From a bacterium (GTDB lineage Bacteria; SZUA-182; DTGQ01), in the NCBI GenBank assembly GCA_040752695.1, contig JBFMGO010000100.1, positions 1 to 22,761 on the forward strand: a stretch of 22,761 nt of DNA. Reading direction: 5' to 3'. The notes beneath the pieces are model-generated. The model had not been told where the DNA came from. It searched no databases and saw only the letters and a list, made by a program, of their open reading frames with translations. Both the position numbers and the translations under genes were made by a program. Positions 1 through 21,820 of the stretch are shown piece after piece (the stretch's first letter is position 1; every line of letters begins with the position of its first letter).

Positions 1-3000
1 GATGAACTTTCTGTTGAATCACTTATTTTCCTGAGGGCCTATCGCGGCGGCAAGCGGTACATCGAGCAGTTCAGAAGGGTGGATTTTACCACCAAGAACA
101 GGAAGAAGATAGAAATAAAGGAAGATGGTATTTATGTAATAACAGGCGGTCTGGGGGGAGTTGGGCTGGTTATGGCAAACTACCTGGCACAGAAAGGGAG
201 GGTAAACCTTGCGCTGATAAGTCGAACGGGAGTGCCAAGGGGTAAGGAGCAGCAGGATTATCTCAGAAAGATTATGACCACAGGGACCAGGGTGGAATGT
301 ATAGCAGGAGATTGTACTGACTTCAGAAGAATGGACAAGATCATGAAAGGACTTCGCCAAAAATATGGCCGGATAAATGGCATTATTCACGGTGCGGGAA
401 TTATAGAAGTTGATACTCTCATTAACCGGTCCGAAAAAGAGTTCCTTTCAGTACTGAGTCCGAAAATAGAGGGCACTTTTATCCTTGATCGGGTTACTGA
501 AGAAGAAAATCTGGATTTCTTCATTCTTTTTTCATCAGTGGCCACTGTGTTCCCTACTATCGGTCAAAGTGACTATGCTGCGGCAAACATGTACCTTAAT
601 GCATATTCACAATATAGAAACAAAAAGAACAGAAATACGCTGACTATTAATTGGGTAGCCTGGAAAGATGTAGGTATGGCCGTTAGTACGGGGATCAGCC
701 AAGGCTTTATATTTAAAGCACTGCCCATTGATAAAGCCATGAAAGGATTTGATAAGGTAATACAATACCCTATCAGTAATGTTCTTATAGGCGAAATCAA
801 TTATTCCGATAATATCGTGTCTTTACTGGAAAAATATCCTGTAAGCCTGTCCTTAGACATTAAAGAGAATCTCAATCAGAAAAAAGAAGAGAGTAGTGCA
901 AGCAAGAAATCGAAGGCAGCCGTTGGCACTTCAGTAAGATTGGCGGGCAGAGAGGATAATAATTATACGGAAACTGAAAAAATATTGGCAGCTATTTGGG
1001 GCAAGATCCTGGGATTTGAAGAGCTGGATATCTTTGCCTCATTTTATGCATTGGGTGGAGATTCTATCCTTGCTTTACGGATAATTAATAACGTTAATAG
1101 CGAATTTAATATAAACCTCAATATTTCTGAGCTCCTTAATTATGTAAGTATTGCTTCTCTGGCTGAGATGCTCGATAGAGATTATCCAAGGAAGCACAGG
1201 AGGGCTCCTGATAGCATAGGAGAAAAAGCCACCTCATATCCCCTTTCCTTACAGCAGAAGAGGATGTATTCCATGTGCAACATGCCCGTAACATATCTTG
1301 TTGAAGGAGAAATTGATGCAGTTCGTGCGGATTTCGTTTATGATTTCTTAGAGCCTGTAGAAAAAAGAGAATATTATCCTGCCTCATCAGCACAAAAGCG
1401 CCTCTTTTTTTTAAACCAGTTAACGCATATTGGCATAAGTTATAATCTTCCTGTTATCGTAAAAGTGAAAGGGAAGTTTGATAAAAATCGATTTGAAAAT
1501 GCCATAAGGGAATTGATTGAATATCACGAAGCATTGAGGACATCTTTTCAATTGGTAGACAATGAACTGATGCAAAAAGTACATGATAAGGTTGATTTCA
1601 AAGTAAACTATATCCAAACCAATAAGTCCACCCTGCAAGAAGGAGATATCAGTCAATTAGCAAAAGAACTTATTCAGCCCTTTGATTTGTCAATAGCCCC
1701 CTTATTCAGGATTGCTTTGATTACTACTCTCTCAGAAGAGGAACATCTGATTTTATATGATCTTCACCATATTATCGCCGACGGGACTTCAATACAAATT
1801 TTTAATGCAGGATTTATGCGTCTGTACAAAGGAGAGAAATTATCCCCCTTGAGGATTCAATATAAAGATTATACCTGCTGGCAAAATAAATTGCTTGAAA
1901 CCGAACAAATCAAAGCACAAGAAAGGTATTGGCTGGACGTATTTTCAGGAGAAATACCGAAGCTGGATTTACCTACAGATTTTCCCCGTCCGAGTATTTT
2001 CACCTTTAAAGGTGATACCTGCTTATTTAAACTGGGATATGAAGACACCCAACTATTAAAAAAAATGTGCGCGGAGTGCAGCGTCACTTTATTCATGAAT
2101 ATCTTGGCAGCCTTTTATGTGCTCTTACATAAGTATACAAACCAGGAGGATATAATCGTCGGCTATGGAATAGGCGGACGTTCACATAAAGATTTACAAC
2201 CCATTATGGGTATGTTTATTAATACCTTGGCCATGCGAAACCAACCACGGCCCCAAAAGACCTATAAAGAGTTTTTAGATGAAGTAAGGGAGAATTGTTT
2301 ACAGGCTTATAAAAATCAGGATATTCAATTTGAAAGGTTAATAGACAAAATCGATTTACAAAGAGATCCATCAAGGACCCCGCTTTTTGATGTATCAATT
2401 GTGATTCAGAATTTTGAACGCTCAAGGGAGAGGATAGAAGAGAATATCTTTCATGAATATTACTTTGAAAAGAAAACTTCTATGGTTGACCTTACTTTAT
2501 TTATCAATGAGATTGACAATGAGATCCATTTTACTTTCGAATATTACTCAGCGATATTCAAACAAGAAACCATTCAGCGGCTCTCCAACTACCTGGTAAA
2601 CATAATAAAGCAGGTATGTAAAAATTCACAGATTCCAATATTAGATATAGACATCCTCTGTGAAGAAGAAAAGAGCCAACTATTGCATACCTTCAACCGG
2701 ACCAAAGCTTACTATCCGGAAGATAAAACAATTAACGAATTATTTGAACAACAGGTAGCAAAGGCGCCAGAGGCGGTTGCCTTAACCTTTCAGGCTCAAC
2801 AGCTTTCTTATTCAGGGTTGAATGCAAGAGCCAATCAACTGGCAAGAGTATTAAGGCAAAAAGGGGTAAGACCGGGTAGTATAGTTGGGATGCTCTTCGA
2901 GCGCTCAACAGATATGATAGTAGGGATACTTGGAATCCTAAAATCGGGTGGTGCCTATTTGCCGATAGATCCAGGGTATCCATTGGAAAGAATAAGCTAT

Positions 3001-4599
3001 ATGCTCAAGGACAGCAAGGTAAAAATAGTCCTTACACAAAAAGATTATCCATTTTCGGATAATTTATCTCCTGTTGACATTTTACCTGTAGACAACGAGG
3101 GCATGTATTCGAGGGAAGCATGTAACCCGGAGATTATAAATACTCCCGACGATCTGGCCTATATTATCTACACTTCGGGGACTACCGGTGAGCCCAAGGG
3201 TACAATGATTGAACATCGAGATGTGGTTAACCTTATCTGGGCATTAAAAGAGAGGGTGTATAGGAGGTATGAAAATTGCCTGAAAGTGAGTCTGCTCGTT
3301 TCCTACACTTTCGATGCTTCTGTGCAGCAGATATTTGGGGCTCTATTACAGGGGCACAGCCTTCATCTTGTTCCCGAAGGCATTCGAGCTGATGCTGCAG
3401 GTTTACTTAACTTTTACACAAGAAACGAGATAGATATTGCAGAGGCGACACCTGCCCATGTCCGGTTGTTGCTTGATCATATGAGACATAGTAAATTCCC
3501 CCTCAGGGTAAAACATTTCTTTATAGGGGGAGAGGCCTTACCCCGTCAAATAGTAAAGGATTTTTTCCATTGTATTAAGGAGAATACCCCTGATACTGAG
3601 CAAAATGTTCCTATAATCAGTAATGTGTATGGTCCGACTGAGTGTTGTGTAGTCTCTACCTCATACGAAATTACAACTGAAAACATAGATCATTATGAGA
3701 GTATTCCGATAGGCAGGCCCATCTTAAATAAACAGATTCATATTGTTAACAAAGAGAATAGACTTCAACCAATCGGAGTGGTAGGAGAAATATGTGTATC
3801 CGGCCATGGATTATCCAGAGGCTATTTAAATAAGCCGGACTTGATAGCAGAGAAATTCATAGATAACCCTTATGCAAAGGGGTGCAAGCTTTACAAGACC
3901 GGAGACCTTGGCAGGTGGCTCCCTGACGGAAATATTGAATTTATCGGCAGGATAGATAACCAGGTAAAAATACGCGGCTTGAGGATAGAACTTGGCGAAA
4001 TCGAGGCTCACCTCCTCAGGACATCGGGAATCAAAGAAGCGGCGGTGCTGGCCAAAGAGGCTGATGACGGTCAAGAATTCCTCTATGCTTATATTATCTC
4101 AGATAAGAGCCTGACAATGAATGAGTTAAGAGAACATTTATCAAAGAATTTGCCAAATTACATGGTCCCTTCATATTTTATTCAGTTGGAGCAATTGCCG
4201 TTAACTTCAAATGGGAAAATAGACAGGAAAAAATTAGAATCATGTGGCCAAGCAATGATGACAGGTGTTCAGTATGTTGCTCCAGAGAATGAGCTGCAAG
4301 AAAGGATTGCTGCTATCTGGGGAAAAATACTCAAATTGGATAAGGTGGGCATACATGATAATTTTTTTGATCTTGGCGGTAATTCATTAAATATTATCCA
4401 GGTTAACGATATGCTGAAAAAAGAGCTGAGCAGAGAAATTTCAGTAACATCCCTTTTTCAATACCCAACAGTAAATTCTCTGGCCAGGTTTTTAAATAAT
4501 CTCGAAGAGAACCAAACGTTTTCTGATCGCAAGGAAATCCTGGGAAAAGGGATGGATAAGTTGAAGAGATTGAAAAACAAGAAGATATCGGTAAATTAA
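1..4599 (+). CDS. Hybrid PKS-NRPS, 5'-truncated: KR-ACP-(C remnant)-C-A-PCP
   Basis: Frame 1 is open from base 1 (DELSVESLIFLRAYRGGKRYIEQF...), so the GTG at 79 is internal. KR Rossmann motif YVITGGLGGVG and catalytic GQSDYAAAN; ACP LGGDS (Ser 1063); C domain HHIIADG (1765-1785); A-domain motifs YIIYTSGTTGEPKG, YGPTE, YKTGD, NGKIDR; PCP FFDLGGNS (Ser 4384); TAA at 4597-4599. Confidence 0.96.
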   Translation, partial: DELSVESLIFLRAYRGGKRYIEQFRRVDFTTKNRKKIEIKEDGIYVITGGLGGVGLVMANYLAQKGRVNLALISRTGVPRGKEQQDYLRKIMTTGTRVECIAGDCTDFRRMDKIMKGLRQKYGRINGIIHGAGIIEVDTLINRSEKEFLSVLSPKIEGTFILDRVTEEENLDFFILFSSVATVFPTIGQSDYAAANMYLNAYSQYRNKKNRNTLTINWVAWKDVGMAVSTGISQGFIFKALPIDKAMKGFDKVIQYPISNVLIGEINYSDNIVSLLEKYPVSLSLDIKENLNQKKEESSASKKSKAAVGTSVRLAGREDNNYTETEKILAAIWGKILGFEELDIFASFYALGGDSILALRIINNVNSEFNINLNISELLNYVSIASLAEMLDRDYPRKHRRAPDSIGEKATSYPLSLQQKRMYSMCNMPVTYLVEGEIDAVRADFVYDFLEPVEKREYYPASSAQKRLFFLNQLTHIGISYNLPVIVKVKGKFDKNRFENAIRELIEYHEALRTSFQLVDNELMQKVHDKVDFKVNYIQTNKSTLQEGDISQLAKELIQPFDLSIAPLFRIALITTLSEEEHLILYDLHHIIADGTSIQIFNAGFMRLYKGEKLSPLRIQYKDYTCWQNKLLETEQIKAQERYWLDVFSGEIPKLDLPTDFPRPSIFTFKGDTCLFKLGYEDTQLLKKMCAECSVTLFMNILAAFYVLLHKYTNQEDIIVGYGIGGRSHKDLQPIMGMFINTLAMRNQPRPQKTYKEFLDEVRENCLQAYKNQDIQFERLIDKIDLQRDPSRTPLFDVSIVIQNFERSRERIEENIFHEYYFEKKTSMVDLTLFINEIDNEIHFTFEYYSAIFKQETIQRLSNYLVNIIKQVCKNSQIPILDIDILCEEEKSQLLHTFNRTKAYYPEDKTINELFEQQVAKAPEAVALTFQAQQLSYSGLNARANQLARVLRQKGVRPGSIVGMLFERSTDMIVGILGILKSGGAYLPIDPGYPLERISYMLKDSKVKIVLTQKDYPFSDNLSPVDILPVDNEGMYSREACNPEIINTPDDLAYIIYTSGTTGEPKGTMIEHRDVVNLIWALKERVYRRYENCLKVSLLVSYTFDASVQQIFGALLQGHSLHLVPEGIRADAAGLLNFYTRNEIDIAEATPAHVRLLLDHMRHSKFPLRVKHFFIGGEALPRQIVKDFFHCIKENTPDTEQNVPIISNVYGPTECCVVSTSYEITTENIDHYESIPIGRPILNKQIHIVNKENRLQPIGVVGEICVSGHGLSRGYLNKPDLIAEKFIDNPYAKGCKLYKTGDLGRWLPDGNIEFIGRIDNQVKIRGLRIELGEIEAHLLRTSGIKEAAVLAKEADDGQEFLYAYIISDKSLTMNELREHLSKNLPNYMVPSYFIQLEQLPLTSNGKIDRKKLESCGQAMMTGVQYVAPENELQERIAAIWGKILKLDKVGIHDNFFDLGGNSLNIIQVNDMLKKELSREISVTSLFQYPTVNSLARFLNNLEENQTFSDRKEILGKGMDKLKRLKNKKISVN
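124..1176 (+). other. PKS KR-ACP didomain (end of a module whose KS/AT lie upstream of the window)
   Basis: GIYVITGGLGGVG, IIHGAG, FSSVA...GQSDYAAAN, INWVAW, then ACP FYALGGDSI. Boundaries approximate. Confidence 0.9.
1237..1338 (+). other. Vestigial C-domain N-terminus fused to a carrier-protein tail (module deletion scar)
   Basis: YPLSLQQKRMY...NMPVTYLVEGEIDAVR is a C-domain start. It is followed directly by ADFV and then a second, complete C start (EPVEKREYYPASSAQKRLF). Confidence 0.75.
1369..4500 (+). other. NRPS module C-A-PCP; A-domain code DAQEFGVVVK (Gln/Glu family, divergent)
   Basis: Code read by alignment to GrsA from FDASVQ, IAEATP, FFIGGE and NVYGPTECCVV. Nearest classical codes are Gln DAQDLGVVDK and Glu DAKDLGVVDK. 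Confidence 0.7.
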
Positions 4600-4600
4600 C

Positions 4601-4606
4601 AGGTGG
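4601..4606 (+). promoter_or_regulatory. Probable ribosome-binding site for the 4844-aa gene
   Basis: AGGTGG lies 7 nt upstream of ATG 4614, within a 14-bp intergenic gap. Confidence 0.6.
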
Positions 4607-4613
4607 TGTAATT

Positions 4614-7600
4614 ATGGGTAAAAACTTAACCGGATTTGAGATAGCTGTTATTGGCATGTATGGAAGGTTTCCCGGTGCTGATAATATTGAAGAATTTTGG
4701 AATAATCTTATAAATGGGGTTGAATCCATTACTTTTTTTTCTGATGAGCAGCTATCAAATATTGGTGCAGGGCTTGTCAAGAATACAAATTCGGTCAATG
4801 CAGGAGGAATACTTCAAAACAAAGATTCGTTTGATGCCTCATTTTTTGAATATTCTCCCAAAGAAGTGGAAATTATGGATCCGCAGATGAGGGTCCTGCA
4901 TGAATGTGTATGGAGTGCGCTTGAGGATGCAGGATACAGTCCGGGGCAATATAAGGGATTAATAGGTCTTTATGCAGGCGCATCACCCCATTTTTACTGG
5001 GAAGCCCTTTCAACCCTTACCGGTAAAGTTAATGATTTTGGGATATTTGCTGCTCAGCAATTATTTGATAAAGATTTTTTAACCACCCAGATTTCTTACA
5101 AGCTGGATTTAAGGGGTCCCAGTGTTACCCTTTATACTGCCTGCTCTACCTCTTTAGTGGCTATTCATATGGCTTGCAGGGCTCTGATTGGCGGAGAGTG
5201 TGACCTTGCTCTGGCCGGCGGCGTATCCATAAGCTCACACGACAGGTCAGAGTACAGCTATCAGGAGGGAATGATTGTAGCTCCTGATGGTCATTGCCGA
5301 TCATTTGATGCCAAAGCTCAGGGAACGGTGTTTGGTGAGGGTGCCGGGATTATTGTGCTCAAACCTCTGGAGAACGCGATTGAGGATAATGACTTTATTC
5401 ATGCAGTTATTAAAAGCACAGCCATTAACAATGATGGGAAAAGAAAAGTTGGGTATACTGCCCCGAGTATCCAGGGACAGGCAGAAGTAATCAGGACTGC
5501 TTTAGAATTGGCCGAAGTTGACCCGGAAAGCATCAGCTATGTTGAAGCGCACGGGACCGGGACTGTATTGGGTGATCCTATTGAAATTGAAGCATTAAAA
5601 TTAGCATTTAATACGAACAGAAGAGGTTATTGTGGTATCGGCTCCGTGAAAACAAACATTGGACACCTTGATGCAGCAGCTGGTGTGGTAAGTGTAATAA
5701 AAACCATACTGGCCATGAAGCATAAAATAATCCCAAAGAACCTGCATTTTAAAACCCCTAATCCTAAGATAAATTTTGAAGAGAGCCCTTTTTTTGTAGT
5801 GAAGGAATTGAAAAAATGGGAAGATGGAGCACATCCTATTCGAGCGGGGATAAACTCTTTCGGGATTGGAGGAACTAATGCCCATCTTATTCTGGAAGAA
5901 GCTCCTCAGATAGATGACACCACCAGAAGCAGGCCATATCAAATTCTTTTACTTTCCGCTAAAACAAATACCGCTCTTGGTCAATTAGCGGAGAATCTGG
6001 CAGACCATTTAAGGAAAAACCCCGGTTTAAACCTGGCTGATGTCGCCTATACCTTGCAAACGGGCAGGGAGGCTTTTCGATATAGAAGAATGATTGTATG
6101 CTCTGATATTGATGAGGCAATAGAATTATTATCCTCTGCTCAAGGAAAAGAGAATATTTCCTTAATAAAAGAAGATGAAAAATATGCTGTCTTCATGTTC
6201 CCGGGTCAGGGCTCCCAATATATAAATATGGGAAAAGAGCTTTATGATACGGAAATTGTGTTTCGCAGAGAGTTAGACCGGTGCTTTAAAATCTTATCTC
6301 AGATTACTGGAAATGATTTAAAAGAAATCCTCTATCCATCTGCTGCTGATACCAGATCTGCCAAAATTAATCAAACAGAGTATGCTCAACCTCTATTATT
6401 TATTTTTGAGTATGCATTAGCCAAACTCCTCATGAGCTGGGGAATAAGGCCAAAGGCTATGATTGGCCATAGCATAGGTGAATTTGTTGCCGCGCACCTG
6501 TCCGGCGTTTTCTCATTGGAAGAAGCAATAAAACTGGTAGCCACGAGAGGAAGGTTGATGCAGCAACTTCCCCTTCATACCTCTCACGCCTTCCATAAAG
6601 ACAAAAAGGCAATCTTTTTTGAAACAGGCCCTGGCAGAGCCTTAGGTATATTTGCCGAGCAGCATAAAGAGAGGGACCCCGGGCAGAAGATAATCAATAT
6701 GGTAAGACATCCCAAGGAAGGGGTCTTGGATGGAAAATACCTTCTATCAAAGCTGGGTGATGCCTGGTTGTCAGGGTTATCTATAGATTGGTTCTATTCA
6801 GAAGAGAAAAGAAAGCGCCTGCCTTTGCCGACCTATCCCTTTGAGAAAAGGAGCTATCAAATTAAGGGCGACCTATTCAAACTGGGTGGGATATCTCAAC
6901 AAAGAAAATTGACTAAGAATCCAAATATTGCAGACTGGTTCTACGTTCCTTCCTGGAAACGTACTCTATTGCCTCCTGAATCTGCATACCAGCCATCAAT
7001 TCAGCATAATTGGCTCATATTCACAGATGAAACCGGTTTAGGATCTCGAATTATAAAAAGATTGAAAGCTCAGAATCAGAATGTGACTATTGTGAAGGCA
7101 AGAGCAGAATTCTCAAAAACAGATGATCAGGAATATAGTATCAATCCGGAGCAGGATAATGATTATTACAGGTTATTTGAATGCTTAAGAAAGGAAGGCA
7201 AGCTACCCGAGAAAATCGTTCACTTGTGGACTATATCAGACGACAGCGGGAATGATGATAAAGATTATACTCCTGAACTGGTTGATGAATATAATAACTT
7301 GGGATTTTATAGTTTGCTCAACATAGCTCGGGTGATCGGAAGGACGAGTATTACAGCCCAAATAAAGGTAATCACCAACCGTCTGCAAGAGGTAACAGAA
7401 CATGATTTTCTGTCTCCATGCAAGGCAACGGTTCTTGGACCGGTAAAGGTGATTCCCCATGAATTTCCAAACATCCATTGCATCTGTATTGATATTGAGT
7501 GGCCGGGCTCAGGAGGAAATAATGCTTTGCGAATGGTCGAAATACTCGGCCGGGAATTAGAAAGTGAAACTCCTGATATGATCATTGCTTATCGTGGTAA

Positions 7601-10600
7601 TCACCGTTGGGTTCAAATATTCGAACCGGCACGGTTGGCAAAACCAGGTGACGCTAACATCAGATTAAAAGATGCCGGCGCTTATCTTATCACAGGAGGA
7701 CTGGGCGGCATAGGCCTCGTACTTGCCGAGCATCTCGCTAAAACAAAGAAGGCAAGGCTTATTCTCACAGGACGTTCCTTTTTCCCGGCCCGAAATGATT
7801 GGGATGAGTGGCTGAAGAGCCATGATCAAGAGGATAAAACAAGCATCAAGATACGAAAAGTACAGGAGCTGGAAAAGTTTGGAGCGAAAGTATCAGTTTT
7901 CAGTGCAGATGTCTCAAATAAGCTCCAAATGCAGCAGGTAATGACAGGTGCAAAGGAATACTTCGGCGGAATTGATGGGGTTATCCATGCAGCAGGTACT
8001 CCTGACAGTGGAGTAATACAGTTGAGATCACGTGAAAAATCAGAGGAAGTATTCTCCTCAAAAATAACCGGATTACTTATATTGGATACTCTTTTGCGGG
8101 AGAATTCAATCACTTTGGATTTTTTTCTTTTCTGCTCATCATTGGCTTCCATTTTGCCGCCCTTTGGCCAGGTAGCATATTGTGCTGCCAATATTTTTCT
8201 CGATACCTATGCCTGCTTTAAGGTTTCTCAAGGCGGGCCAGTTACTATCTCGCTTAACTGGGATACATGGCAGGAAGTTGGTATGGCCTTTGAGACAATG
8301 AAGGATTTATCTTCAAAGGGATACAGCCTTGAGAAAGGGATATTACCTTCCGAAGGAGTAGAAACCTTTCGATATGTCCTTGAAAGTGCACTATCAAATG
8401 TTGCCGTATCAACTACAGATCTGCAGATGCGGATTGAGCAAATGCATACCCTGGAAGACGAAAAGTCAAAGTTACTTGAAGCTTTTGAAGAAGACTCGCC
8501 CTCTGTAAATTATCTTCCAAGACCTGAATTAAGTACTGAATACATGGCCCCAATGAGCGAGGTTGAGCAAAGACTTGCCCAGATGTGGAAAGATTACTTA
8601 GGCTTTGAAGAGATAGGCATACATGATAATTTTTTTGAATTAGGGGGGGATTCATTAAAAGCTGTAATGATTATTTCAAAAATTCACGAGGAATTAAATT
8701 CAGAACCTCCCTTAGCCATATTTTTTGATAACCCTACCGTTCAATCCCTGGCCGATTACATTGAAAATTCACAGAGAAAGATATATCGAGGTATTGAGCC
8801 TGTTGAAAAGAGGAAGTATTATCCTCAGTCCTCGGCTCAAAAGCGGCTTTTTATTATAAATCAGTTTGATAATGTTGGTGTAGCTTATAATTTATTTTTA
8901 GTAAAAAAACTCGAAGGCATATTTAACAAAGACAGGTTCGAAAAGGCGGTAGAGGCTCTGATTGAGCGCCATGAGATACTAAGGACATCCTTTACCATTA
9001 TTCATGATGAACCGGTTCAGATAATCCATGACAGGATTGATTTTGAAGTAAGATATTATGAGCTTGATGAGAAAGAAATGAAGCAAGAAAGAATGAGAGA
9101 ATTAAGCAAAGATTTTTACCAGCCCTTTGATTTATCTCGTGCTCCTCTCTTTCGCATCGCCTGTGCCAGGATGGTACCTGACAATGAATTTTACTTTATA
9201 CTACAGATGCATCATATTATTACCGATGGCAGTTCCGGAAATATTCTCTATAACGATCTTATGCATTTTTACAAGGGAGAAAAACCGAAACCGCTTCAAA
9301 TACAATACAAAGATTTTGTCTGCTGGCAGAATACCCTCATTGAAACAGGACAGTTCAAAGAGCAGGAAGAATATTGGACCAATTTATTTTCAGGAGGGAT
9401 TCCAAGGTTGGATTTACCATTGGATTTTCCCCGCCCTGATTTTTTCATGTATAGGGGAGAAAGCTATACCTTCACGCTTGATAAGAACACTACCTCTCAA
9501 CTCAAGAATCTGTGTTTAAAGCATGAGGCTACTCTTTTCATGACTCTCCTGGCAACGCTCAATATCCTGTTTCACAAGTATACTGGAATGGAGGATATTG
9601 TTATTGGAAGTATTGTAGCCGGACGCCGTTATCATCCGGAGCTGCAGAATCTCACTGGTTTTTTTATAAATGTCCTGGCTATGCGGAATTACCCCGGGAC
9701 AGATAAAACCTTTCTTACATTCCTGAAGGAAGTCAAGAAAAACAGTATCAGGGCTTATGAAAACCAAGAATTTCAATTTGAGGAATTAATTGATAGATTA
9801 AATATTGAAAGAGATCCTTCAAGGAACCCCGTCTTTGATGTCTGCTTTGTCGTGCAAAATTTCCAGGATCGATCAGCCCAGATGTTGCAACCCAATGAGA
9901 TGAAGGTACTTTCCTTATTTAAAGAGCAAGTCGAGGGGACAACCCTTTTTGACTTGGACATAGAAGCATCTGAAAGCGGTGATAAAATTCAAGTTGACAT
10001 AAAATATTGTACATCATTATTTAGACGGGAGACTATAGAACGGCTTGCCGGGCATTGGCTGAACATTGTGAATCAGGTTTGCCTGAGACCTGATATGCGG
10101 ATAGCTGACATTGAATTACTTTCAGAGAATGAAAAAAGAAACATCTTGTTCGATTTTAACCGGACAGAAGTAAAATATCCGGAAAATAAAACCATCTGTG
10201 ATCTATTTAAAGAGCAGGTAGATCGGCTGCCTGATAAAGTGGCGGTGACATTTAAAGATTATTCAATTACCTATCAGGAATTAGACGAAAAATCTAACCA
10301 GGTTGCCAATTATTTACATGGTGCAATCCAGATCCGTGCGGAATCAAAGATCGGGATTTTTATGGATAAGTCCATTGAGGTCATCATCGCGGTATTTGGA
10401 ATTTGGAAAGCAGGCGGCGCCTATGTTCCCCTTGACCCCTCCCTTCCCTTAGAGCGAATGAGGGACATCATCGATGATGCAGGCATCTGCCACATTCTCT
10501 CCCGGGGAAAATATCTCAATGTTCTCAATCAATTGCAAGAGCAGTGTCCATCAATGAAAGCCTTCTGTTATCTTGACCGGTCCGATACCGGCCTGCTCCA

Positions 10601-13600
10601 AAGGTACAGTAAGGAGAGATTGAACCTGGCTATTCCTCCAAAGCATCTGGCCTATGTTATCTATACCTCAGGCTCCACAGGGAAACCCAAAGGAGTAATG
10701 GTAGAGCACAGGCAATATGTGAATGCTGCCTATGCCTGGAGGGATGTCTATAGGTTGAGGAGTCAGGACTCAGAAGTGAATCTTCTTCAAATAGCCGGTA
10801 TCTCCTTTGATGTATTTGCGGGTGATCTGGCCAAGGCACTTGTAAATGGAGGAAAGCTCATACTCTGCCCTGAGGATTTGTGCCCAGATTTTGAGGGAAT
10901 GTATGCCTTGATCAAAAATCAAAAGGTGAGCCTGTTTGAGTCAACCCCGGCCCTGATTATACCCTTTATGGATTACGTCTACACTTTTGGCTTGAATATA
11001 GATAGCTTGCAGTTGCTCATCCTTGGTTCGGATACCTGTAATGCTGAGGATTTCAGGACACTGAGTCTGCGCTTTGGGGACAGGATGAGAATTATCAATA
11101 GCTATGGGGTCACAGAGGCAACCATAGATACAAGCTGCTATGAAGAATCCCTTGGCAAACTTCTTCAATCCGGAACTGTGCCCATCGGAAGACCGCTTCC
11201 GAATATGACCTGCTACATCCTTGATGAAAATGAGAAGCTTCAGCCCATCGGAGTTCCCGGTGAACTATACATAGGGGGTGCTGGAGTATCAAGGGGGTAT
11301 GTGTCCCAAGAGGAATTAACGAAAGAAAGATTCAGAAGAAACCCTTATATCAAGGGAGAACGTGTCTATAAGACTGGAGATCTGGCAAAATGGCTTCCGG
11401 ATGGCACTCTTGCCTTTTTGGGCAGATCAGATTATCAGGTCAAGATCAGAGGGTACAGAATAGAGCCCGGAGAGATAGAGTCAAAGCTTAAAGGACACAG
11501 CGAGATAAAAGAGGCGGTGGTCATTGATGGTGAAGATAATGCTGGTGATAAATACCTATGTGCATATGTTGTTAGTGACCGAGCGATTGAGGCACAGGAA
11601 TTGGAAGAGCACCTGTCACAATCATTGCCCAGGTACATGATACCTTCCTTTTTTATTCAAGTGGAAAAAATACCACTGACTCCAAATGGCAAGGTAGACA
11701 GAAAGGCTTTGCCTTTACCTGCGATAGCTGCAGGGCAAAAGTATATTGGCCCAAGGGATAGAATCGAGGAAAAGTTAGTTGAAATCTGGTCAGAAATACT
11801 GAGAAAAGAAGGAGAGCTCATCAGCATTGATGCAAACTTTTTTCATTTGGGCGGGCACTCATTGAAGGCAACCATCCTTGCCTCCAGAATACATAAGGTG
11901 TTTGAGATAAAAGTGCCTCTGAACATCATTTTCAAGTATCCTACTATAGAAGAAATAGCCAAATACCTAAAGGGTAAAGAAAAAGATCAATACCTGGCTA
12001 TAAGGCCGGCGGATCAAAAGGAATATTATCCTCTATCATCAGCCCAAAAGAGACTCTATATTCTGCAGCAGTTCGAGGAAAATAGTATAAGCTATAACAT
12101 CCCCTTGATATTTCCCTTGGCAGAAGGACTGGATAAAGAGAGGCTTGAGGATATCCTCAAAAAATTAATAACCAGGCATGAGAGCCTGCGGACCTCTTTT
12201 GAAATAATCGATGATGAACCAGTGCAAAAAATTCACCAGGAGGTCTCCTTCTCGATAGAATACTACGAAACTGATGAGAGTGATCTTGACATCATAAGGA
12301 GCAACCTCACGAAAGCCTTTCACTTGAGCCAGGCTCCTCTTTTAAGAGCAATTTATGTGCAAATGATTTCTTCCTCCCGGGCGGCAGGTTTTATCGATAT
12401 GCATCACATTATTACTGATGCTGAGTCAAATCAAATCTTAATCCGGGAGATTAAGGCCCTGTATGAAGGGAGGGAATTGCCGGAGCTTCAGCTCCAGTAT
12501 AAGGATTTTTCCGAGTGGCAAAACAGCCGGGAGCAGCAGGAACAGATCAGGCAGCAGGAATTATACTGGCTGGCAATATTTTCAGATGAGATACCTGTGC
12601 TGAATCTGCCCACAGATTACCCAAGACCTCCCGTGCGAAGCTTTGAGGGCAGCACAGTCGACTTTACCTTAACGGAAAAAGAAACCCGGATACTAAAGGA
12701 GGCAGCCAGAGAGACAGAAACCACACTTTTTATGGTTGTTCTTTCCCTCTATACCATCCTTCTTTCAAGATTGAGCGGCCAGGAGGATATTGTTGTAGGA
12801 ACTCCCATAGCCGGACGAAGGCATGCTGATCTGGAAGGCATTGTCGGAATGTTCGTGAACACCCTGGCCCTGCGGAACTACCCACACGGGGGAAAAAGCC
12901 TGGCCGGTTTTTTCGCAGAGGTAAAGGAGAGGACTCTTAAGGCCTTTGAGAATCAAGAGTTTCAGTTTGAGGACCTGGTTGATAAACGAAAGATTCAAAG
13001 GGAAATGAGCCGCAATCCCCTGTTTGATGTAATGCTTAATATATTAAACCAGGCAGAGTCCCAGGAGGACATGCTCAGGGGCAATGAGCAGGATTTCTTT
13101 AGGCATAAAAAGAGTACAGCCAAATGTGATCTGACCCTGACCGCTCTGGAAACCGGGAAGAGGCTGTATTTTCAATTTGAATATAGCACCAGACTCTTTC
13201 ATCCGGCCACTATCGAAAGATTTATCAGCTCCTTTAGACAGCTCATCCAGGCAATGAGAAAGGGCATGCAGCAGCGGTTATCAGATCTTGAAATACTGTC
13301 TGACCGGGAAAGGAATCAGCTCCTCCATGATTTTAACCAAACCGAAAGTTCCTATCCAAAGGACAAGACCATTCAAGAGTTGTTTGAAGCGCAGGTTGAA
13401 ATGACGCCGGATAATATAGCTGTATCCTCCGGAGGCAAAAGCATTACCTATTCGGAATTAAATAAAAGAGCCAATCAACTGGCCAGGGTGCTGAGAGAAA
13501 AGGGAACAGGCAGGGACTGTATTGTAGGAATACTCATGAATCGCTCAATAGAGGTGGTGATCGGTATACTGGGAATAGTAAAGGCAGGGGGATGCTACTT

Positions 13601-16600
13601 GCCGATTGACCCGGAATACCCGCAAGAGAGAATGCTCTCTATGCTGGAGGATAGTAAGGCCCAAATCCTCCTGACCCAGGATACTTTCAGAAGTAAAGTA
13701 AAATTTCGTGGTGAAATGATCAATGGAGAAGATGAAAAGGTATATGCAGGAAATTCTTCTAATTTATCGAATATAAACAAGCCTGATGATCTGGTGTATG
13801 TAATCTATACCTCCGGGTCAACAGGAAAACCTAAGGGTGTGATGATATGCCACCAGGGGCTGATCAATTATATTGAATGGGCCAAAAAGGTATATATCAG
13901 AGATGATAATCCAGCCTTTCCATTATATTCGTCCTTATCTTTTGATTTAACAGTTACTTCAATCTTTACTCCCTTGATTTCAGGAAACAAGATAATAATT
14001 TATGAAGATGATAAGAAGGATCTTCTTATCGCCAGGGTGATACAAGAGAATAAGGCGGGAATAGTGAAAGTTACCCCGACCCACCTTAACCTGATAAAGG
14101 AGGGCTATTATGGCAAGTCCAGTATCAAGCGACTGATTGTAGGAGGAGAAGACCTTAAAACTGAGCTGGCCAGGCAGATATATACTGCTTTTGATGGGAA
14201 TATTGAAATATACAATGAATACGGGCCGACTGAAGCATCTGTGGGCTGTATGATTTATAAATTCGATTTTGAAAGTGATACAAGGCCATCTGTACCAATA
14301 GGCGTTCCGGCAGATAACGTTCAGGTGTATATAGTGGATAAGTACCTGAATCTTTTGCCAATAGGTGTTGCGGGCGAATTGTGCATCGGAGGGGATGGGT
14401 TGGCCAGGGGATACTTATACAGACCGGAACTGACCGCTGAAAAATTTATTCCTCATCCCTTTATCCAGGGAGAGAGAATATACAAAACAGGCGATCTGGC
14501 CAGATGGCTTCCTGATGGCCGGGTGGAATTTCTCGGCAGGATGGATCATCAGGTCAAAATAAGAGGATTCAGGATAGAGCTTGGAGAGATCGAAAGTCAG
14601 TTGCTCACTCATGAGGCTGTTCAAGAAGCTGTAGTGCTGGCTCAGGAGGCCGATGACGGCCACAACTATTTATGCGCCTATCTTGTTTCAGAAAGGGAAC
14701 TGACAACTGATGAATTAAGAAGGCATCTATCAAGAAGCCTGCCTGATTACATGATCCCTTCATATTTTATTCGGCTGGAGGAATTACCTTTTACCGCCAA
14801 TGGTAAAATAGATCGCCGAGCCTTGCTGGAGATGGGAAAAAACGCCGGTCTTAGCACAAGTGCCGCCTACCAGCCGCCGCGTAACCACATTGAAAAGCAA
14901 CTGGTGGAGATATGGGAAAAGGTCTTAAGAAGAAAAAATATTGGCATCAATGATAATTTTTTTATGGTTGGCGGAGACTCCATCAGGATTATTCAAATTA
15001 TTTCAAGGCTGAGCACGTTTGGCTATAAGCTGAGTGTAAGAGATGTATTCCTTCATCCGACCATAGCCGGATTAGCTCCTCTGGTTAAGTCTGTAAAGCG
15101 CATAGCTGAGCAAGGGCCGGTTACCGGACATCTGCCCTTGACTCCGAATGATTATACCTACAAAAAGCTGCCCATTGAGGTAGTGAGTCACCTGCAGGAG
15201 TTATATGAACTAAAAGATATATATACCTTATCTCCTCTGCAGGAGGGCATGTTATTTCATGCCCTGTATGATAAAACTTCTCCTGCCTATTTTGAGCAAT
15301 TCTCCTATCGATTGGAAGGCAGGCTGGAAATATCTCTGGTAGAAAGGTCGCTCCAGGAGCTCTCCCAGCGGCATGATGTATTAAGGACAGTATTTCTCTC
15401 TGAAAATATGGGCCGTCCCATTCAACTGGTGCTCAAAGACAGAGCCCCTGAATTTTCATTTGAAGATATACGTAACAGAGGCGGGGAGGCAGAAAGAAAG
15501 GCTTTCATAAGGGATTTCAAGGTCAGGGATAAGGAGCGTCTGTTTGACTTAAGCAAAGGTCCTCTCATCAGGATGAGCATCCTTCAAGTATCGGAGGCAA
15601 GCTATGAAGTTATCTGGAGCTATCACCATATCCTGATGGATGGCTGGTGTTCAGGGATACTGCTGGCAGAATTTTTCGAAATTTACCAGAGCCTGGTTGA
15701 AAATCGTCCCCACACACTACCGGAAGCACCACCCTATAGCAGATATATCGCCTGGCTGGAAAATCAGGACAGGGAGCAATCAAGAAGATATTGGATTGAT
15801 TATTTATCCCTCTATGATGAGGCAACAGGCATCCCGAAGTCAAAGAACAATCAAAAACCCGGTGGCGGCTATCAGCACGGGCACTCTGTATTCACTCTCT
15901 CAGAGGAGAGAACCCGCAGGTTGAGCCAACTTTCAGGAAGGTTGAAAGTTACCCTGAATACGATTATCCAGACTGTCTGGGGGGTCTTGCTCGCCAAATA
16001 TACTGGTAAAACAGATGTAGTTTTTGGGGCGGTAGTTTCAGGCCGACCATCAGAAATAGAAGGAATAGAGTCGATGGTTGGATTATTTATCAATGCTATC
16101 CCTGTGCGTATACAATATGACGAGAGCATGCAATTTGACACTTTGCTTCAGCAGGTACAAGAGAGAGCCATAGAAAGTGAACCTTACCATTATTATCCAC
16201 TGGCTGAAATACAGGCAAATTCCGAGTTAAAACAAAATTTAGTTGACCACCTGGTAGTATTTGAAAATTATCCTCTTGGCGAGATCATTGAAAACCTTCC
16301 TGTTAAAGTAACTCGGGGAGAAGTGTTCGAGCAGACCAATTATGACTTTAACCTTCTTGTTTCTCCGGGAGGCACATTAGGCATGGAATTTAAATATAAT
16401 GCAAACTTGTTCCAGGCTGATTTCGTACAATCCATAGCCAGGCACTTTCTTCACATAATAGACCAGATTATAGAAAATGAAAAAGTGACCATGAAAGCCC
16501 TCCATCTTCTCTCGGAAGAGGAAAAAAATCAAATCCTCCATGGCCTTAACAATACCAATTTCTCTTATCCGAAGGATAAGACTATCCATGAATTATTTGA

Positions 16601-19148: not shown

Positions 19149-19190
19149 AATATACTCTTAATCGAAAAGAGAAAGGAAGGGCGGAAGGGA

Positions 19191-20555
19191 TTGAGAGATT
19201 TGATATGTCTCATGGCCGCAGGCGGTACCACTGGAGATGTAAGGCCGCTCTTGGGATTAGCTGTCGGCTTAAAGCAGAGGGGTCACAGGATTCGTTTCTT
19301 TGCTGATCCGGGATTTAAAGATCTGGCTGAACAGAGGGGGATCACCGGGGAAGAGTGGTTCAGTTCAAGCATTATCCCTCAGCCCGTCTTTTGGCGAACC
19401 GAAAGTGCCCAGAGATATCTATGGGGCAAACTGCCAAGAATACGTGACCTGATGTTTATCCGGAAGTTACACAAAAGCCATTTCCAAAAGGCAGAAGCAT
19501 TCTTAAAGCACCTTGATGCCCGGAATAACTCAGCGATTGTTGCTTCAATAGCCAGCCTATCTGCCCGGTCTGTTCTTTATAAATTTGGCCCCAAGTGCGC
19601 TAAAATTATCTCCTGTCCTATGCCGTATCAGCCAAGCAGTACTTTCTCACTGGCCCCTTCGGAGCCTTTCTTTAAAACCCCGATTGGAAAATGGTTCTTT
19701 CATATTCTCTGCTATCGAAGATTGATAGGTTTCAGAAGAAAGAAATATGAGAATTTTATAAAAAAAACTTACCATCTTGTTTCTGTAAGTTCAGAATTTT
19801 TCCCTCGACCGAAAGACTGGCTGCCGAATATGCAAGTTACCGGCTATATTCCACTTCAGGAGACAGGGGACTGGCAACCACCAGACTCTCTGGTTCAATT
19901 CTTAGAGAGTGGAGATGAGCCTCTATACGTCGGCTTTGGTAGCCTGGCATTATTTTCCGGACTGCGCGGAAAAAAACTGGCAGCAAAAGTAATCGAAGCA
20001 GTTTCTCGGCTTAATCAGCGCTGCATTATCCAATCCCCAGACTTGTCTGATCTTTCTCATCCTTCCAATATTTATATTATGGATTATGCCGCTCCTCACC
20101 ACTGGCTTTTCCCTCGTTGTGCAGTTATCGTGCATCACGGCGGGTATGGTACAACTCATGCGTGTTTGTCCGCGGGAAAGCCCATGGTTATCTACCCATT
20201 TCATACCGACGAGTTTCTCTGGGCGAAAAAGGTTGCCGAGTTTGGAATTGGACCGACTCATACAGTAAGAATCTGGAAACTGGACCAGGAGGAATTGATC
20301 AAAGGTGTTTTATTTGCCCTTAAGCCGAGTGTACAAAGAGCTGCCCAAAGGTTTTCTGTCATAAGAAATGAAGATGGCCTTTCTGTGCAGATTTCGGCTA
20401 TTGAGAGCATCATAGAGCACCATCAACGTGGCCTCTCTCCATGGCAATGGAATATGCCCTCTGACCTCACTGTTGATGACACAGCCGGGCAATACCAGAA
20501 ATCAAAGGACAGAGAACAGGAGGGGCGCAAAGTCGAATGTCATCTCATGAGGTGA
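19191..20555 (+). CDS. Family GT1 glycosyltransferase (sterol-GT / GtfB-like clade), paralog A
   Basis: N-terminal GGTTGDVRP; FPRPKDW...VTGY; PLYVGFGS; PHHWLFPRC...HHGGYGTT. The TTG start is supported by the upstream AAAGGAAGG and by alignment to paralog B. Confidence 0.92.
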   Translation: MRDLICLMAAGGTTGDVRPLLGLAVGLKQRGHRIRFFADPGFKDLAEQRGITGEEWFSSSIIPQPVFWRTESAQRYLWGKLPRIRDLMFIRKLHKSHFQKAEAFLKHLDARNNSAIVASIASLSARSVLYKFGPKCAKIISCPMPYQPSSTFSLAPSEPFFKTPIGKWFFHILCYRRLIGFRRKKYENFIKKTYHLVSVSSEFFPRPKDWLPNMQVTGYIPLQETGDWQPPDSLVQFLESGDEPLYVGFGSLALFSGLRGKKLAAKVIEAVSRLNQRCIIQSPDLSDLSHPSNIYIMDYAAPHHWLFPRCAVIVHHGGYGTTHACLSAGKPMVIYPFHTDEFLWAKKVAEFGIGPTHTVRIWKLDQEELIKGVLFALKPSVQRAAQRFSVIRNEDGLSVQISAIESIIEHHQRGLSPWQWNMPSDLTVDDTAGQYQKSKDREQEGRKVECHLMR

Positions 20556-21820
20556 TATGCCTTCTGACGAAAAATGGGACTGCCGGGGATGTGCGGCCGC
20601 TTTTAAGACTGGCTGCCGGATTGAAGCAGCGCGGCTACAGGATTTACTTCTTGGCTGATCAAGGATATAGAGAATCGGCCAGGCGGATCGGAATTACTGA
20701 GGAAGAGTGGTTTTGTCCGGGCGATATTCCACTCTCCATTTTTTTACGAACTGAAAGTGCCCAGAGGTGGCTGCGGGGCAAAGCTCCAAGAGTGAGTGAC
20801 CTGATATCTGCCCGGAAATTCCGGAAAAACCAGTCCGAAAAGATAGAAGCATTCTTAGAGCACCTTGAGGCTTGGAATAATTCAAGAATTATCGCTTCTA
20901 TAGCCAGTATATCTGCCTGGTCCCTTCTCCATAGGTTTGGCCCCGCGTGCGCGAAAATTATTTCCTGCCCTGCGCCTTTTCAACCAAGCAGCACCTTTTC
21001 CCTCGCTCCACCAGGGATTTTTTGGCAAACACAGGTTGGAAAGTGGTTTTTCAGGAACTTGCGCCAACGCCGCATTACAGGAAACACCAGAGAAAAATAC
21101 CTGAAGTTCATGCACAAGAGCTATCATCTTGTTTCGGTAAGCCCGGAATTCTTTCCGCGACCAAAGGACTGGCTGCCGAATATGCAGGTCACCGGCTATA
21201 TCCCCTTACGGGATATGGAAGACTGGCAGCCGCCGGATTCTCTGGTCCAATTTTTAGAAAGCAAAGATGCACCGGTATATGTCGGTTTTGGGAGCTTGCC
21301 ATTTTTTGCCGGGCAGTGGGGGAAAAAACTGGCCACCGAGATAATCGAGGCCTTTTCCATTCTCGGACTGCGCTGCATCATCCAGTCTTGCGACTTATCT
21401 GATTTTCCTCATCCTCCCCCTGTGTATATTATGGACTATGCCGCCCCTCACCACTGGCTTTTTCCCCGCTGCCAGGTTGCAGTGCACAATGGAGGATATG
21501 GCACAACCCACGCCTGCCTTTCTGCCGGTAAACCCATGGTCATTTATCCTTTTCAGGCAGATCAGTTCCTCTGGGCGAAAAAGGCGGCAGAGTTTGGGAT
21601 TGGACCAAATGATGTAATGAGAATCGGGAAGTTGAATCGAAAAAGATTGATCGCTGATATTCTCTTTGCTCTTGAACCGGATACACAAAAGGCTGCCCAA
21701 AGATTTTCCGCAGCGATACGGGAAGAAGATGGTTTTCCCGTTCAGATGTCAGCTATCGAGAGCATCATTGAGCACCATCAGCGCAACCTTTCCCCTTTAG
21801 AATGGAATATGCCTTTATGA
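20537..21820 (+). CDS. Family GT1 glycosyltransferase, paralog B
   Basis: GTAGDVRP; FPRPKDW; PVYVGFGS; HNGGYGTT; PFQADQFLW. AGGAGG at 20518-20523 precedes the ATG. Overlaps paralog A by 19 bp. Confidence 0.92.
   Translation: MSSHEVICLLTKNGTAGDVRPLLRLAAGLKQRGYRIYFLADQGYRESARRIGITEEEWFCPGDIPLSIFLRTESAQRWLRGKAPRVSDLISARKFRKNQSEKIEAFLEHLEAWNNSRIIASIASISAWSLLHRFGPACAKIISCPAPFQPSSTFSLAPPGIFWQTQVGKWFFRNLRQRRITGNTREKYLKFMHKSYHLVSVSPEFFPRPKDWLPNMQVTGYIPLRDMEDWQPPDSLVQFLESKDAPVYVGFGSLPFFAGQWGKKLATEIIEAFSILGLRCIIQSCDLSDFPHPPPVYIMDYAAPHHWLFPRCQVAVHNGGYGTTHACLSAGKPMVIYPFQADQFLWAKKAAEFGIGPNDVMRIGKLNRKRLIADILFALEPDTQKAAQRFSAAIREEDGFPVQMSAIESIIEHHQRNLSPLEWNMPL

Follow-up and report, generated by a model that had tools for sequence, protein, structure and literature searches.

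Related systems

Degenerate ATs occur in the colibactin system, and Lohman 2015 (PNAS) and Nivina 2019 (Chem Rev) reportedly take the view that AT remnants persist in AT-less modules. Among the closest described systems is the pepstatin family (pepC; PMC12081711). As far as that account goes, it has a truncated AT in a statine-forming PKS module that follows an NRPS module, the pep cluster works, and the homologous clusters include cis-AT and AT-less subtypes. A truncated AT in such a module and the two subtypes are likewise seen in the window, by which we mean the whole 22,761-nt stretch of DNA analysed here, and its relatives, and the present cluster likely works too. However, the pep genes are described as stand-alone and iterative and have no KR, whereas the window module is one part of a 4844-aa hybrid protein and includes a KR. 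Compared with the pepstatin account, the present cluster also offers three grades of AT loss among relatives, mapped breakpoints and a standalone AT that is adjacent in the relatives.

In the described iturin/mycosubtilin systems (ItuD/FenF; PMC11751314), a malonyl-CoA transacylase encoded at the head of the operon acts in trans to load an ACP belonging to a hybrid PKS/NRPS, and the gene order in the two relatives that hold the cluster (G003 and G005) is alike. Unlike iturin as described, the cluster has two KR-bearing PKS modules, a cis-AT in one of them (G005) and glycosyltransferases that follow. The acyl ligase, aminotransferase and seven NRPS modules of the iturin family are not the make-up of this locus; an acyl ligase and an aminotransferase were not found by Pfam in the scanned proteins of the window, G003 and G005.

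In the account of glycopeptide NRPSs (PMC1894796), an E domain is present in some orthologues only, and the DCL-type C domain left downstream accepts L-donors after E loss. The arrangement here is similar, although the stereochemistry of the glycopeptides is known, that of the window product is only predicted, and the A core upstream is also swapped. Among solved structures, the G005 AT has its best relative in the ZmaA AT of zwittermicin (PDB 4QBU; PMC4207774; 320.9 bits), from which the subdomain boundaries were taken. ZmaA-AT is described as intact and takes hydroxymalonyl-ACP (GYSFG/GAAH), whereas the window AT is malonyl-type (GHSIG/HAFH) and broken. With respect to two kinds of described site, the T-domain breakpoint at FFxxGGxS and the A3/A6/T1 hot spots (bioRxiv 10.1101/2022.12.02.518901; PMC11428043), the A-core swaps of the window fall in the A3-A6 region, but the AT, E and methyltransferase excisions lie at other sites, at domain or subdomain edges with a few bases of homology. 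FFxxGGxS is also the motif at a PCP-PCP join in X1, a run with a soil strain ~94% identical to the window. The NaPDoS2 hybrid trans-AT KS subclass, as described (PMC9582728), places AT-less KSs in one clade with hybrid cis-AT KSs, a sign that cis modules have lost their AT; that pattern is phylogenetic, whereas here the intermediate state itself was found. A precedent exists for each event type at this locus.

Gene layout and relatives

The main reference was G005, which has an orthologous cluster at 71-75% nucleotide identity and belongs to the same family as the window organism, whose own genome bin is G000. A search of related loci for a full orthologue returned none; it gave six genome-contig loci at 34-59% and two metagenome-contig loci, of which only L021 is close (1130 bp, 93% identical, covering no junction). 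Protein searches with regions of ORF2 (8000 and 1594 candidates scored) returned multi-module synthases and no close full-region orthologue, the best being 65% over 38% of the query.

The features are listed in Table 1. Both reading frames are open throughout, as originally predicted, and the KS, KR, C, A, carrier and TE motifs said to be intact are all present. Pfam finds four A domains in the window. By Pfam, the end of ORF1 (C-A-PCP) and the start of ORF2 (KS-AT*-KR-ACP) have the layout of a statine-forming NRPS-PKS pair, which is described as an A-PCP module followed by KS-AT-KR-ACP (PMC12081711). The glycosyltransferase region is 88-91% identical to G003 at the nucleotide level, and the continuation of the GT4-like gene was found on contig C127. 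The substrate codes presumably specify a Glx-derived statine-like unit, Orn/Lys, L-Asn and Leu. The product would be a glycosylated acyl-peptide built from an acyl/ketide part and these units.

Table 1. Features of the locus and their positions in the window
Feature	Position	Strand	Remarks
ORF1	1-4599	+	1532 aa, 5' end off contig; KR-ACP-(C relic)-C-A-PCP
C-domain N-terminus relic (C1 + C2 motifs)	1222..1335	+	fused to linker before live C domain
A1 specificity core	3009..3815	+	replaced relative to G005
ORF2	4614-19148	+	4844 aa; KS-AT*-KR-ACP-C-A-PCP-C-A-PCP-(E lost)-C-A-PCP-TE
KS2	4638..5903	+	Cys and His catalytic motifs retained
Half-deleted AT (AT*)	6189..6728	+	retains Ser and Arg motifs, HAFH; without small subdomain and 65 residues after His
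AT deletion 1	6572..6573	+	62 aa/186 nt gone vs G005 (ZmaA A226-R289)
AT deletion 2	6596..6597	+	65 aa/195 nt gone vs G005 (ZmaA S298-N362)
KR2 region	6868..8590	+	42-43% aa identity to G005 vs 61-79% elsewhere
A2-A3 backbone N-methyltransferase scar	10540..10620	+	about 280-310 aa missing
A3 core	13655..14358	+	replaced relative to G005
Last module	14948..18264	+	deleted in X1 (3315 nt)
E deletion	15138..15146	+	436 aa/1308 nt gone at about 15140/15141 vs G005, in frame
36-bp exact duplication	16992..17099	+	copies at 16992/17064, in A2-A3 loop of last A domain
Thioesterase (TE)	18507..19076	+	
3 glycosyltransferase genes	19191..22761	+	2 GT28/EryCIII-like paralogs, 1 GT4-like

Deletions in the module 2 AT and the E domain

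The two deletions predicted in the AT of module 2 were both confirmed, in frame, by comparison with G005 (L010), and an island of 8 residues is left between them. The small ferredoxin-like subdomain corresponds to ZmaA A226-I292, and deletion 1 coincides with it to within a few residues. A complete AT has both subdomains with the Ser-His dyad in place; the window AT is missing 127 aa. Its GHSxG-to-ExGP spacing is 52 aa, compared with a median of 175 and a minimum of 89 among 237 motif-matched AT domains of the proteins retrieved. The module 2 AT of G005 is complete (Pfam match 1-281 of 319), and the G005 cluster is therefore mixed, with an AT-less module 1 and a full AT in module 2. In X1 the entire AT is gone (6175>6729, net -540 nt), and the missing part agrees within a few residues with the crystallographic limits of a complete AT (ZmaA P93-S407). 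Neither module 1 of G003 and G005 nor module 2 of the window and of X1 has a working AT of its own.

The predicted loss of an E domain was borne out as well, since G005 (L009) has a complete E. A short microhomology marks the junction, which connects the E1 motif with the E-C linker. The C domain downstream of the lost E does not have the LCL motif LPxDxxRP, and such a DCL-type C domain would now take an L-residue. The deletions would have arisen by short-homology recombination, and only those that kept the frame and fell at the edge of a domain or subdomain would have survived. Conservation of the AT remnant equals that of its neighbours (omega 0.12 vs G005), so the losses of AT and E may have happened very recently and the signal of selection may be older than they are.

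X1 has further in-frame changes. Its last module is deleted, with two PCPs joined at the FFxxGGxS motif where they have 11 bases in common, and all nine of the length differences listed between X1 and the window are divisible by 3 (probability by chance about 5e-5).

Methyltransferase and C-domain remnants

A methyltransferase loss near 10580 had been raised as a possible fifth deletion. The loss is real, but the methyltransferase is also missing in G005, so it is older than the others. Five of the top 7 (of 881) matches to the N-half of this A domain in a BLAST-based scan bear an A2-A3 methyltransferase. The distance from the entry motif to A3 is 47 aa in the window and 322-356 aa in 7 methyltransferase-bearing matches, and the type V SAM motif (PMC8341866) was found in 7 homologous A domains. 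In a family 4 interrupted A domain (A2-Mb-A3), about 270 aa of type V methyltransferase lie between motifs a2 and a3; in the window only the entry and exit sequence is left. Judged from its sequence, the window A domain is a derived, methyltransferase-less form of this family.

The prediction of a module remnant near 1326 stands in part. The C-domain relic (1237-1335) is real: a profile built from 36 C-domain N-termini gives it 22.2 bits, and the highest score in 2000 shuffles was 11.8. An extra module is absent in G003 and G005. The relic has its own 9-aa internal gap at 1275/1276, and X1 loses another 75 nt there (1186>1263). No close source of the relic turned up in G000 or among the proteins retrieved.

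Exchanged and duplicated segments

The locus also has DNA gains and swaps that went unmentioned in the first reading. Three A-domain cores in all are swapped relative to G005. We take the A1 code to be Glx-like in the window and Phe-like in G005, and the A3 code to be Asn-like in the window and Thr-like in G005. The G005 counterpart of ORF1 has two A copies that are 93% identical to each other. A paralogous donor in G000 outside the window was not found above 75% nucleotide identity. The KR2 region is likely an exchanged KR on the basis of its low identity to G005, and X1 has the same version. The A2-A3 loop of the last A domain is expanded to 108 aa, compared with the usual 45-76, and X2 skips 99 nt there.

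Loading of the AT-less modules

In both of the relatives that hold the cluster (2/2), the ORF1 counterpart starts with an AT-less KS, and a FabD-like standalone AT gene lies directly upstream of this AT-less module 1. The standalone AT scores 302 bits against a FabD cut-off of 261, and a Logan assembly contains a third AT of this kind (63-66% identical). Since module 1 is AT-less and has a dedicated AT adjacent to it in both relatives, a trans loader was already needed. The G000 bin returned no orthologue of the standalone AT or KS1, with best matches at 38-44%. The window contig begins downstream of where the standalone AT sits in the relatives. A contig of another genome (G007:C23) carries the same long standalone AT, yet in a different cluster, and was rejected as an orthologue.

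In a quick KS tree without bootstrap, KS2 is sister to the KS2 of G005 (SH-aLRT 100) within a 34-row group in which 31 rows are labelled AT-bearing (labels assigned by motif, one of which, P0037, is wrong), and KS1 falls in a separate AT-less KS group. KS2 is thus outside the AT-less lineage expected of a canonical trans-AT PKS of the bacillaene type. Two unrelated synthases (P0156 and P0246) have the AT-excised end state and are also inside the cis-AT KS group.

The window organism would have a standalone AT whose gene lies upstream of the contig start, and this enzyme would have made the cis-AT of module 2 redundant. The module 2 AT was likely lost because the standalone AT took over its loading; discrete ATs can rescue AT-null cis modules (PMC6164871). 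This likely cause was missed by the first reading. On balance, we think it probable that the AT and E of the window were removed by real in-frame deletions and that the cluster likely works, with the standalone AT loading ACP2 in trans.

Selection, decay and assembly

The original prediction was that domains had been excised under continued selection. Purifying selection is supported, but a single pruning episode is not, as the events differ in age. The dN/dS, a check proposed in the first reading, is about 0.1-0.3; relative to G005 it is 0.07-0.26 in 14 of 18 segments, the other four being saturated. The window branch has 17 nonsynonymous and 26 synonymous changes (43 polarised changes; omega about 0.2). 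Its 19 kb contain no frameshift and 0 stops, where about 26 would be expected on a neutral 2.75% branch, so the stops, frameshifts and dN/dS near 1 of a pseudogene are not seen. These counts speak against very recent decay, in which a cluster that was selected until lately would have lost AT and E as the earliest damage, in frame by chance, on its way to inactivity. We consider this rather unlikely, even though three in-frame events would occur by chance 1 time in 27 and close comparisons give a higher omega (0.17-0.34) than deep ones (0.07-0.26). Decay is further favoured by a stop codon in the KS2 of L021, either real or a sequencing error, and by the cluster copy that was not found in three of the five family relatives. 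The lack in G000 of a cyclic-peptide exporter gene that is present at this locus in G003 points the same way; the gene was likewise not found in G005, and it may therefore be a G003 gain. The deletion ends coincide with subdomain boundaries and X1 has lost the same two domains, likewise in frame and at structural edges, both of which argue against decay. In G005, ORF2 is frameshifted within a repeat tract.

Misassembly, in which the junctions are collapses or chimeras of the metagenome assembler, is very improbable. The genome assembly is in 239 contigs, the present contig is the only source of either ORF1 or ORF2, and no run listed holds at least half of the window's words. None of the runs listed is an RNA run, which has no bearing on expression. 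No independent contig across 6572/6596 or 15140 was found among the 30 pieces listed of 123, and X1 deletes across both. X2 gave short pieces only, none listed of which crosses an AT or E junction (piece 10256-10588 ends 8 nt past 10580), and X3 and X4 gave short motif matches only. However, X1 contigs cross 1326 and 10580 without gaps, the longest word common to both ends of each deleted G005 segment is 6-8 nt (indirect evidence, as G005 is only about 75% identical), and the two AT deletions, 24 nt apart, would require two separate collapses. All three AT and E deletions are also in frame and on structural boundaries. It is also quite unlikely that the cluster works with module 2 loaded by a housekeeping FabD or other genomic AT, or that the module passes the chain without elongating. 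G000 does have further standalone AT/FabD genes (C17, C91 and C132), an AT-null DEBS module can be rescued by a fatty-acid malonyl transacylase (PMC6164871), and hybrid KSs without elongation are described (PMC9582728). Against these readings stand the retained catalytic motifs of KS2, the retained Tyr of KR2, and the dedicated AT next to the AT-less module 1 in both relatives.

Significance

With the standalone AT as the probable loader, the relatives may trace a stepwise change from cis-AT to trans-AT, a reading that we hold tentatively and with some doubt. The AT would have been intact, then lost its small (carrier-docking) subdomain, then the segment after the His, and then been excised, with the line active throughout and the standalone AT covering. 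The origin of AT-less modules has so far been mostly a matter of tree inference, and here one cluster family shows the before, the middle and the after. The base-level breakpoints and the candidate trans-acting AT nearby make the transition open to reconstitution in vitro. The family also offers natural junctions at which an E domain, an A2-A3 methyltransferase or an entire module was removed, and engineers could use them should the shortened lines turn out to be active. If the stepwise reading is true, the three natural alleles would be a direct test of how AT-less modules originate and would provide nature-tested junctions for AT, E and methyltransferase removal.

Organization and inheritance of the locus

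The genome carrying the window (G000) is 6.05 Mb in 239 contigs and is rated 96.6% complete. The window is the entire contig C100; it begins within KR1 and continues directly on contig C127. The catalytic motifs of the KS, both KRs, the C and A domains, the carriers and the TE are kept. GC3 is 0.40-0.43 in the window ORFs and 0.59 in rpoB. A second PKS (G000:C69:11237-31386) has three KS modules, and the GHSxG AT motif was not found in any of them.

When 41 genomes were searched by DNA, two of the five other family members, G005 and G003, proved to carry the cluster; the remaining 35 genomes gave nothing beyond short motif matches. Identity is 70-80% to G005 over most of the assembly line and about 70% to G003 in ORF1, and the rpoB identities are 72% and 74%, respectively. 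These rpoB values suggest vertical inheritance of the cluster core. A later exchange is indicated for the TE and glycosyltransferase block, which shares 88-91% identity with G003. The N-terminus of the last A domain, the TE and the glycosyltransferases are all far more similar to G003 than rpoB is. In the match of window 16518-22761 to the G003 loci L013:12-403 and L014, the A-domain N-terminus is 85% identical. The ORF1 A domain of G003 begins like the last A domain of the window. G003 may carry a minimal version with one NRPS module, in an arrangement masked by a contig gap.

Features of the window and joints in the matching contigs of strain X1
Feature	Position in window	Length change	Remarks
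ORF1	1-4599		KR-ACP-C-A-PCP; 5' end open
ORF2	4614-19148		KS-AT-KR-ACP, then three C-A-PCP modules, TE
Three glycosyltransferase genes	3' of ORF2		
GT28-like genes	19233-21813		tandem paralogs, 72% DNA identity
C-domain relic	1222-1335		internal 9-aa gap
AT deletion 1	6572/6573	-186 nt (62 aa)	relative to G005
AT deletion 2	6596/6597	-195 nt (65 aa)	relative to G005
Methyltransferase scar	about 10580		
E-domain deletion	15138-15146	-1308 nt (436 aa)	relative to G005
X1 joint 1	1186>1263	net -75	within one contig
X1 joint 2	6175>6729	net -540	within one contig
X1 joint 3	14948>18264	-3315 (letters between not known)	within one contig

Domain deletions

The original prediction placed at least four in-frame deletion junctions in this assembly line, and a possible fifth. 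Both AT deletions in module 2 are in frame, with 8 residues retained between them. The best solved match of the G005 AT is the ZmaA AT. Counted along this alignment, deletion 1 corresponds to A226-R289, and the small ferredoxin-like subdomain is A226-I292 (PMC4207774). Deletion 2 corresponds to S298-N362 and begins immediately past the catalytic His. The distance from the Ser motif to ExGP is 52 aa, versus a median of 175 and a minimum of 89 in 237 AT domains motif-picked from fetched proteins. The remnant would be inactive because one wall of the active-site cleft is gone. Its dN/dS versus G005 is still 0.12, so the deletion is probably recent.

The predicted E-domain loss is likewise in frame. 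G005 has a complete E domain behind PCP4; in the window, the E1 motif is fused to the E-C linker at a short microhomology. The loss adjoins one of the swapped A-domain cores. The downstream C domain keeps HHxxxDG and does not have LPxDxxRP, a motif described in PMC1894796 as found in LCL and missing from DCL domains. The same source describes glycopeptide NRPSs without E whose DCL-type domains work on L-residues.

The fifth deletion proved to be a genuine methyltransferase loss, but an older one, since G005 lacks the methyltransferase as well. An A2-A3 methyltransferase occurs in five of the top 7 matches (of 881) to the N-terminal half of this A domain. Seven methyltransferase-bearing matches have the type V SAM motif (taken from PMC8341866), and their entry motif lies 322-356 aa from A3, versus 47 aa in the window. 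The protein P0425 has a methyltransferase-interrupted-type A domain without its methyltransferase near 6201 (loop 88 aa) and an intact methyltransferase-bearing one at 1597.

Of the module remnant predicted near 1326, the C-domain relic stands: its match to a profile built from 36 C-domain N-termini reaches 22.2 bits, compared with a top score of 11.8 among 2000 shuffles. A lost module is plausible, but neither relative has a module at this site; the linker there is short in G003 and filled with repeats in G005. In window 1219-1276, a contig of sequencing run X2 skips 56 nt of the relic; the short side counts 24 nt, and the skip stops at the position of the relic's internal gap.

Recombination beyond deletion

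KR2 is 42-43% identical to G005, versus 61-79% elsewhere, and three of the four A-domain cores differ. From the motifs observed, we take the A-domain codes to be Glx-, Orn/Lys-, Asn- and Leu-like in the window and Phe-, Phe-, Orn/Lys-, Thr- and Gly-like in G005. ORF1 of G005 has an additional A module, and the last A domain of the window acquired a 36-bp duplication. These changes fit the A3/A6/T1 recombination hot spots of PMC11428043. Tracts of an 8-base repeat fill several inter-domain linkers of G005 (L009:10108-10305, L010:2524-2586, L010:3271-3347, L011:8150-8441). One tract shifts the ORF2 frame at the methyltransferase scar; the shift may reflect an error of assembly or may act as a slippage switch.

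Standalone acyltransferase

The gene immediately upstream of ORF1 in G003 and G005 encodes a standalone AT, about 400-420 aa long. In both, the first module is KS-KR-ACP without AT. The G005 protein is above the FabD cut-off (302 versus 261 bits) and retains the GHSLG and His motifs. A third member, from a context-less Logan assembly, is 63-66% identical to both copies. Neither the standalone AT nor KS1 was found in the G000 bin, which an assembly gap would account for if the organism has them. A cluster of genome G007 was rejected as an orthologue: although an AT of this family stands at its head, it is a different cluster, mixing AT-bearing and AT-less modules. That locus (G007:C23:35668-78216, L036-L038) is a large mixed cis/trans PKS-NRPS with a long standalone AT first and apparent extender-unit genes upstream.

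A quick tree built from 70 KS domains places KS2 next to its sister, G005 KS2, within the cis-AT group, and KS1 falls among AT-less KSs. Inside the cis-AT group, AT-less KSs occur in P0156 and P0246, where the distance from KS to LPxYPF is 143 and 168 aa; the X1 span would be 138 aa. AT excision is thus recurrent in this enzyme group. They are unrelated hybrid synthases (KS at 4905 and 3814, respectively) with the AT cleanly excised, an X1-like end state.

Alternative explanations

X1 is a soil metagenome strain whose contigs (depth 15-20) differ from the window by about 5-6.5% and cover 27 of its 30 bins. They cross 1326 and 10580 gap-free. Joint 2 runs from about ZmaA E91 to D408, removing the entire AT (P93-S407) and reaching the first post-AT linker residue; by codon arithmetic, its 13 intervening letters preserve the frame without a stop. 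Joint 3 fuses PCP4 to PCP5 at the FFxxGGxS motif, where the two share 11 bases; this motif is a reported breakpoint (bioRxiv 10.1101/2022.12.02.518901). Each of the nine listed length differences (three joints and six small indel sites) is divisible by three, an outcome with a chance probability of about 5e-5. The AT and E junctions of the window are bridged by none of the 30 listed X1 pieces (of 123), and X1 deletes across both. Misassembly is very improbable. Two collapses 24 nt apart, each in frame and at subdomain edges, would be needed, and the deleted-segment ends share only 6-8 nt words in G005 (an ancestor proxy only), which are too short for assembler collapse. The original preference for true deletions is thus upheld by these short words and by the X1 contigs at 1326 and 10580. 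Over window 1-19990, differences are skewed to G/C in X1 (A>G 187, T>C 175, A>C 139, T>G 79; opposite shifts G>A 92, C>T 84, C>A 20, G>T 18).

Recent decay of the pathway seems unlikely, although several observations favor it. The KS2 of a 93%-identical metagenome relative (L021, 1130 bp in all; L021:578-1129) is interrupted by a stop codon, ORF2 of G005 is frameshifted within a repeat tract, and no cluster copy was seen by DNA search in three of five family relatives. The cyclic-peptide exporter gene of G003 (L014:6455-8485) is cleanly absent near 2313 of C127 (L039), with a junction between the stop and start signals of its neighbors; this ABC exporter family occurs in one of five genomes searched, and the difference may be a loss in G000 or a gain in G003. 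Separately, L021 has two extra residues near the KS2 start, and at C127:3185-3518 about 330 unrelated bases take the place of another G003 gene (L014:4140-5378). Against decay, 14 of 18 segments have dN/dS values of 0.07-0.26 versus G005 (the other four are saturated). Versus G003, the value is 0.13 for KR1 and C1 and 0.17-0.34 across the A5/TE/GT block; versus L021, it is 0.18 in KS2. Among the X1 differences, about 850 in total, the 40 listed give a pN/pS of 0.18. Polarization with outgroups assigns 17 nonsynonymous changes and 26 synonymous ones to the window branch, an omega of about 0.2, and the branch has no stops, versus about 26 expected if neutral at such length. Continued selection on flanking domains, as originally predicted, agrees with these low values, but they may predate the AT deletion. 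It is quite doubtful that module 2 is served by another loader or is non-elongating.

Implications

The closest precedent is the pepstatin family, in which the AT of pepC is truncated and related clusters split into cis-AT and AT-less subtypes (PMC12081711). AT-null cis modules can be rescued by discrete ATs (PMC6164871), an iturin ACP is loaded in trans by ItuD (PMC11751314), and NaPDoS2 places hybrid trans-AT KSs in a clade with those of hybrid cis-AT type (PMC9582728); trans-AT systems and module excision are treated in PMC7930024 and PMC11907408. Graded, breakpoint-mapped AT loss among close relatives was not found in the literature searched, which covered few subscription papers; the PMC12081711 supplements may map such cases. 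The deletions are genuine, and the hybrid cluster that carries them is actively recombining. Judging from sequence, it is fairly probable that a trans-acting neighboring AT reduced the need for the cis-AT, which would then have been lost, and that the E domain and methyltransferase were lost while selection kept the reading frame.
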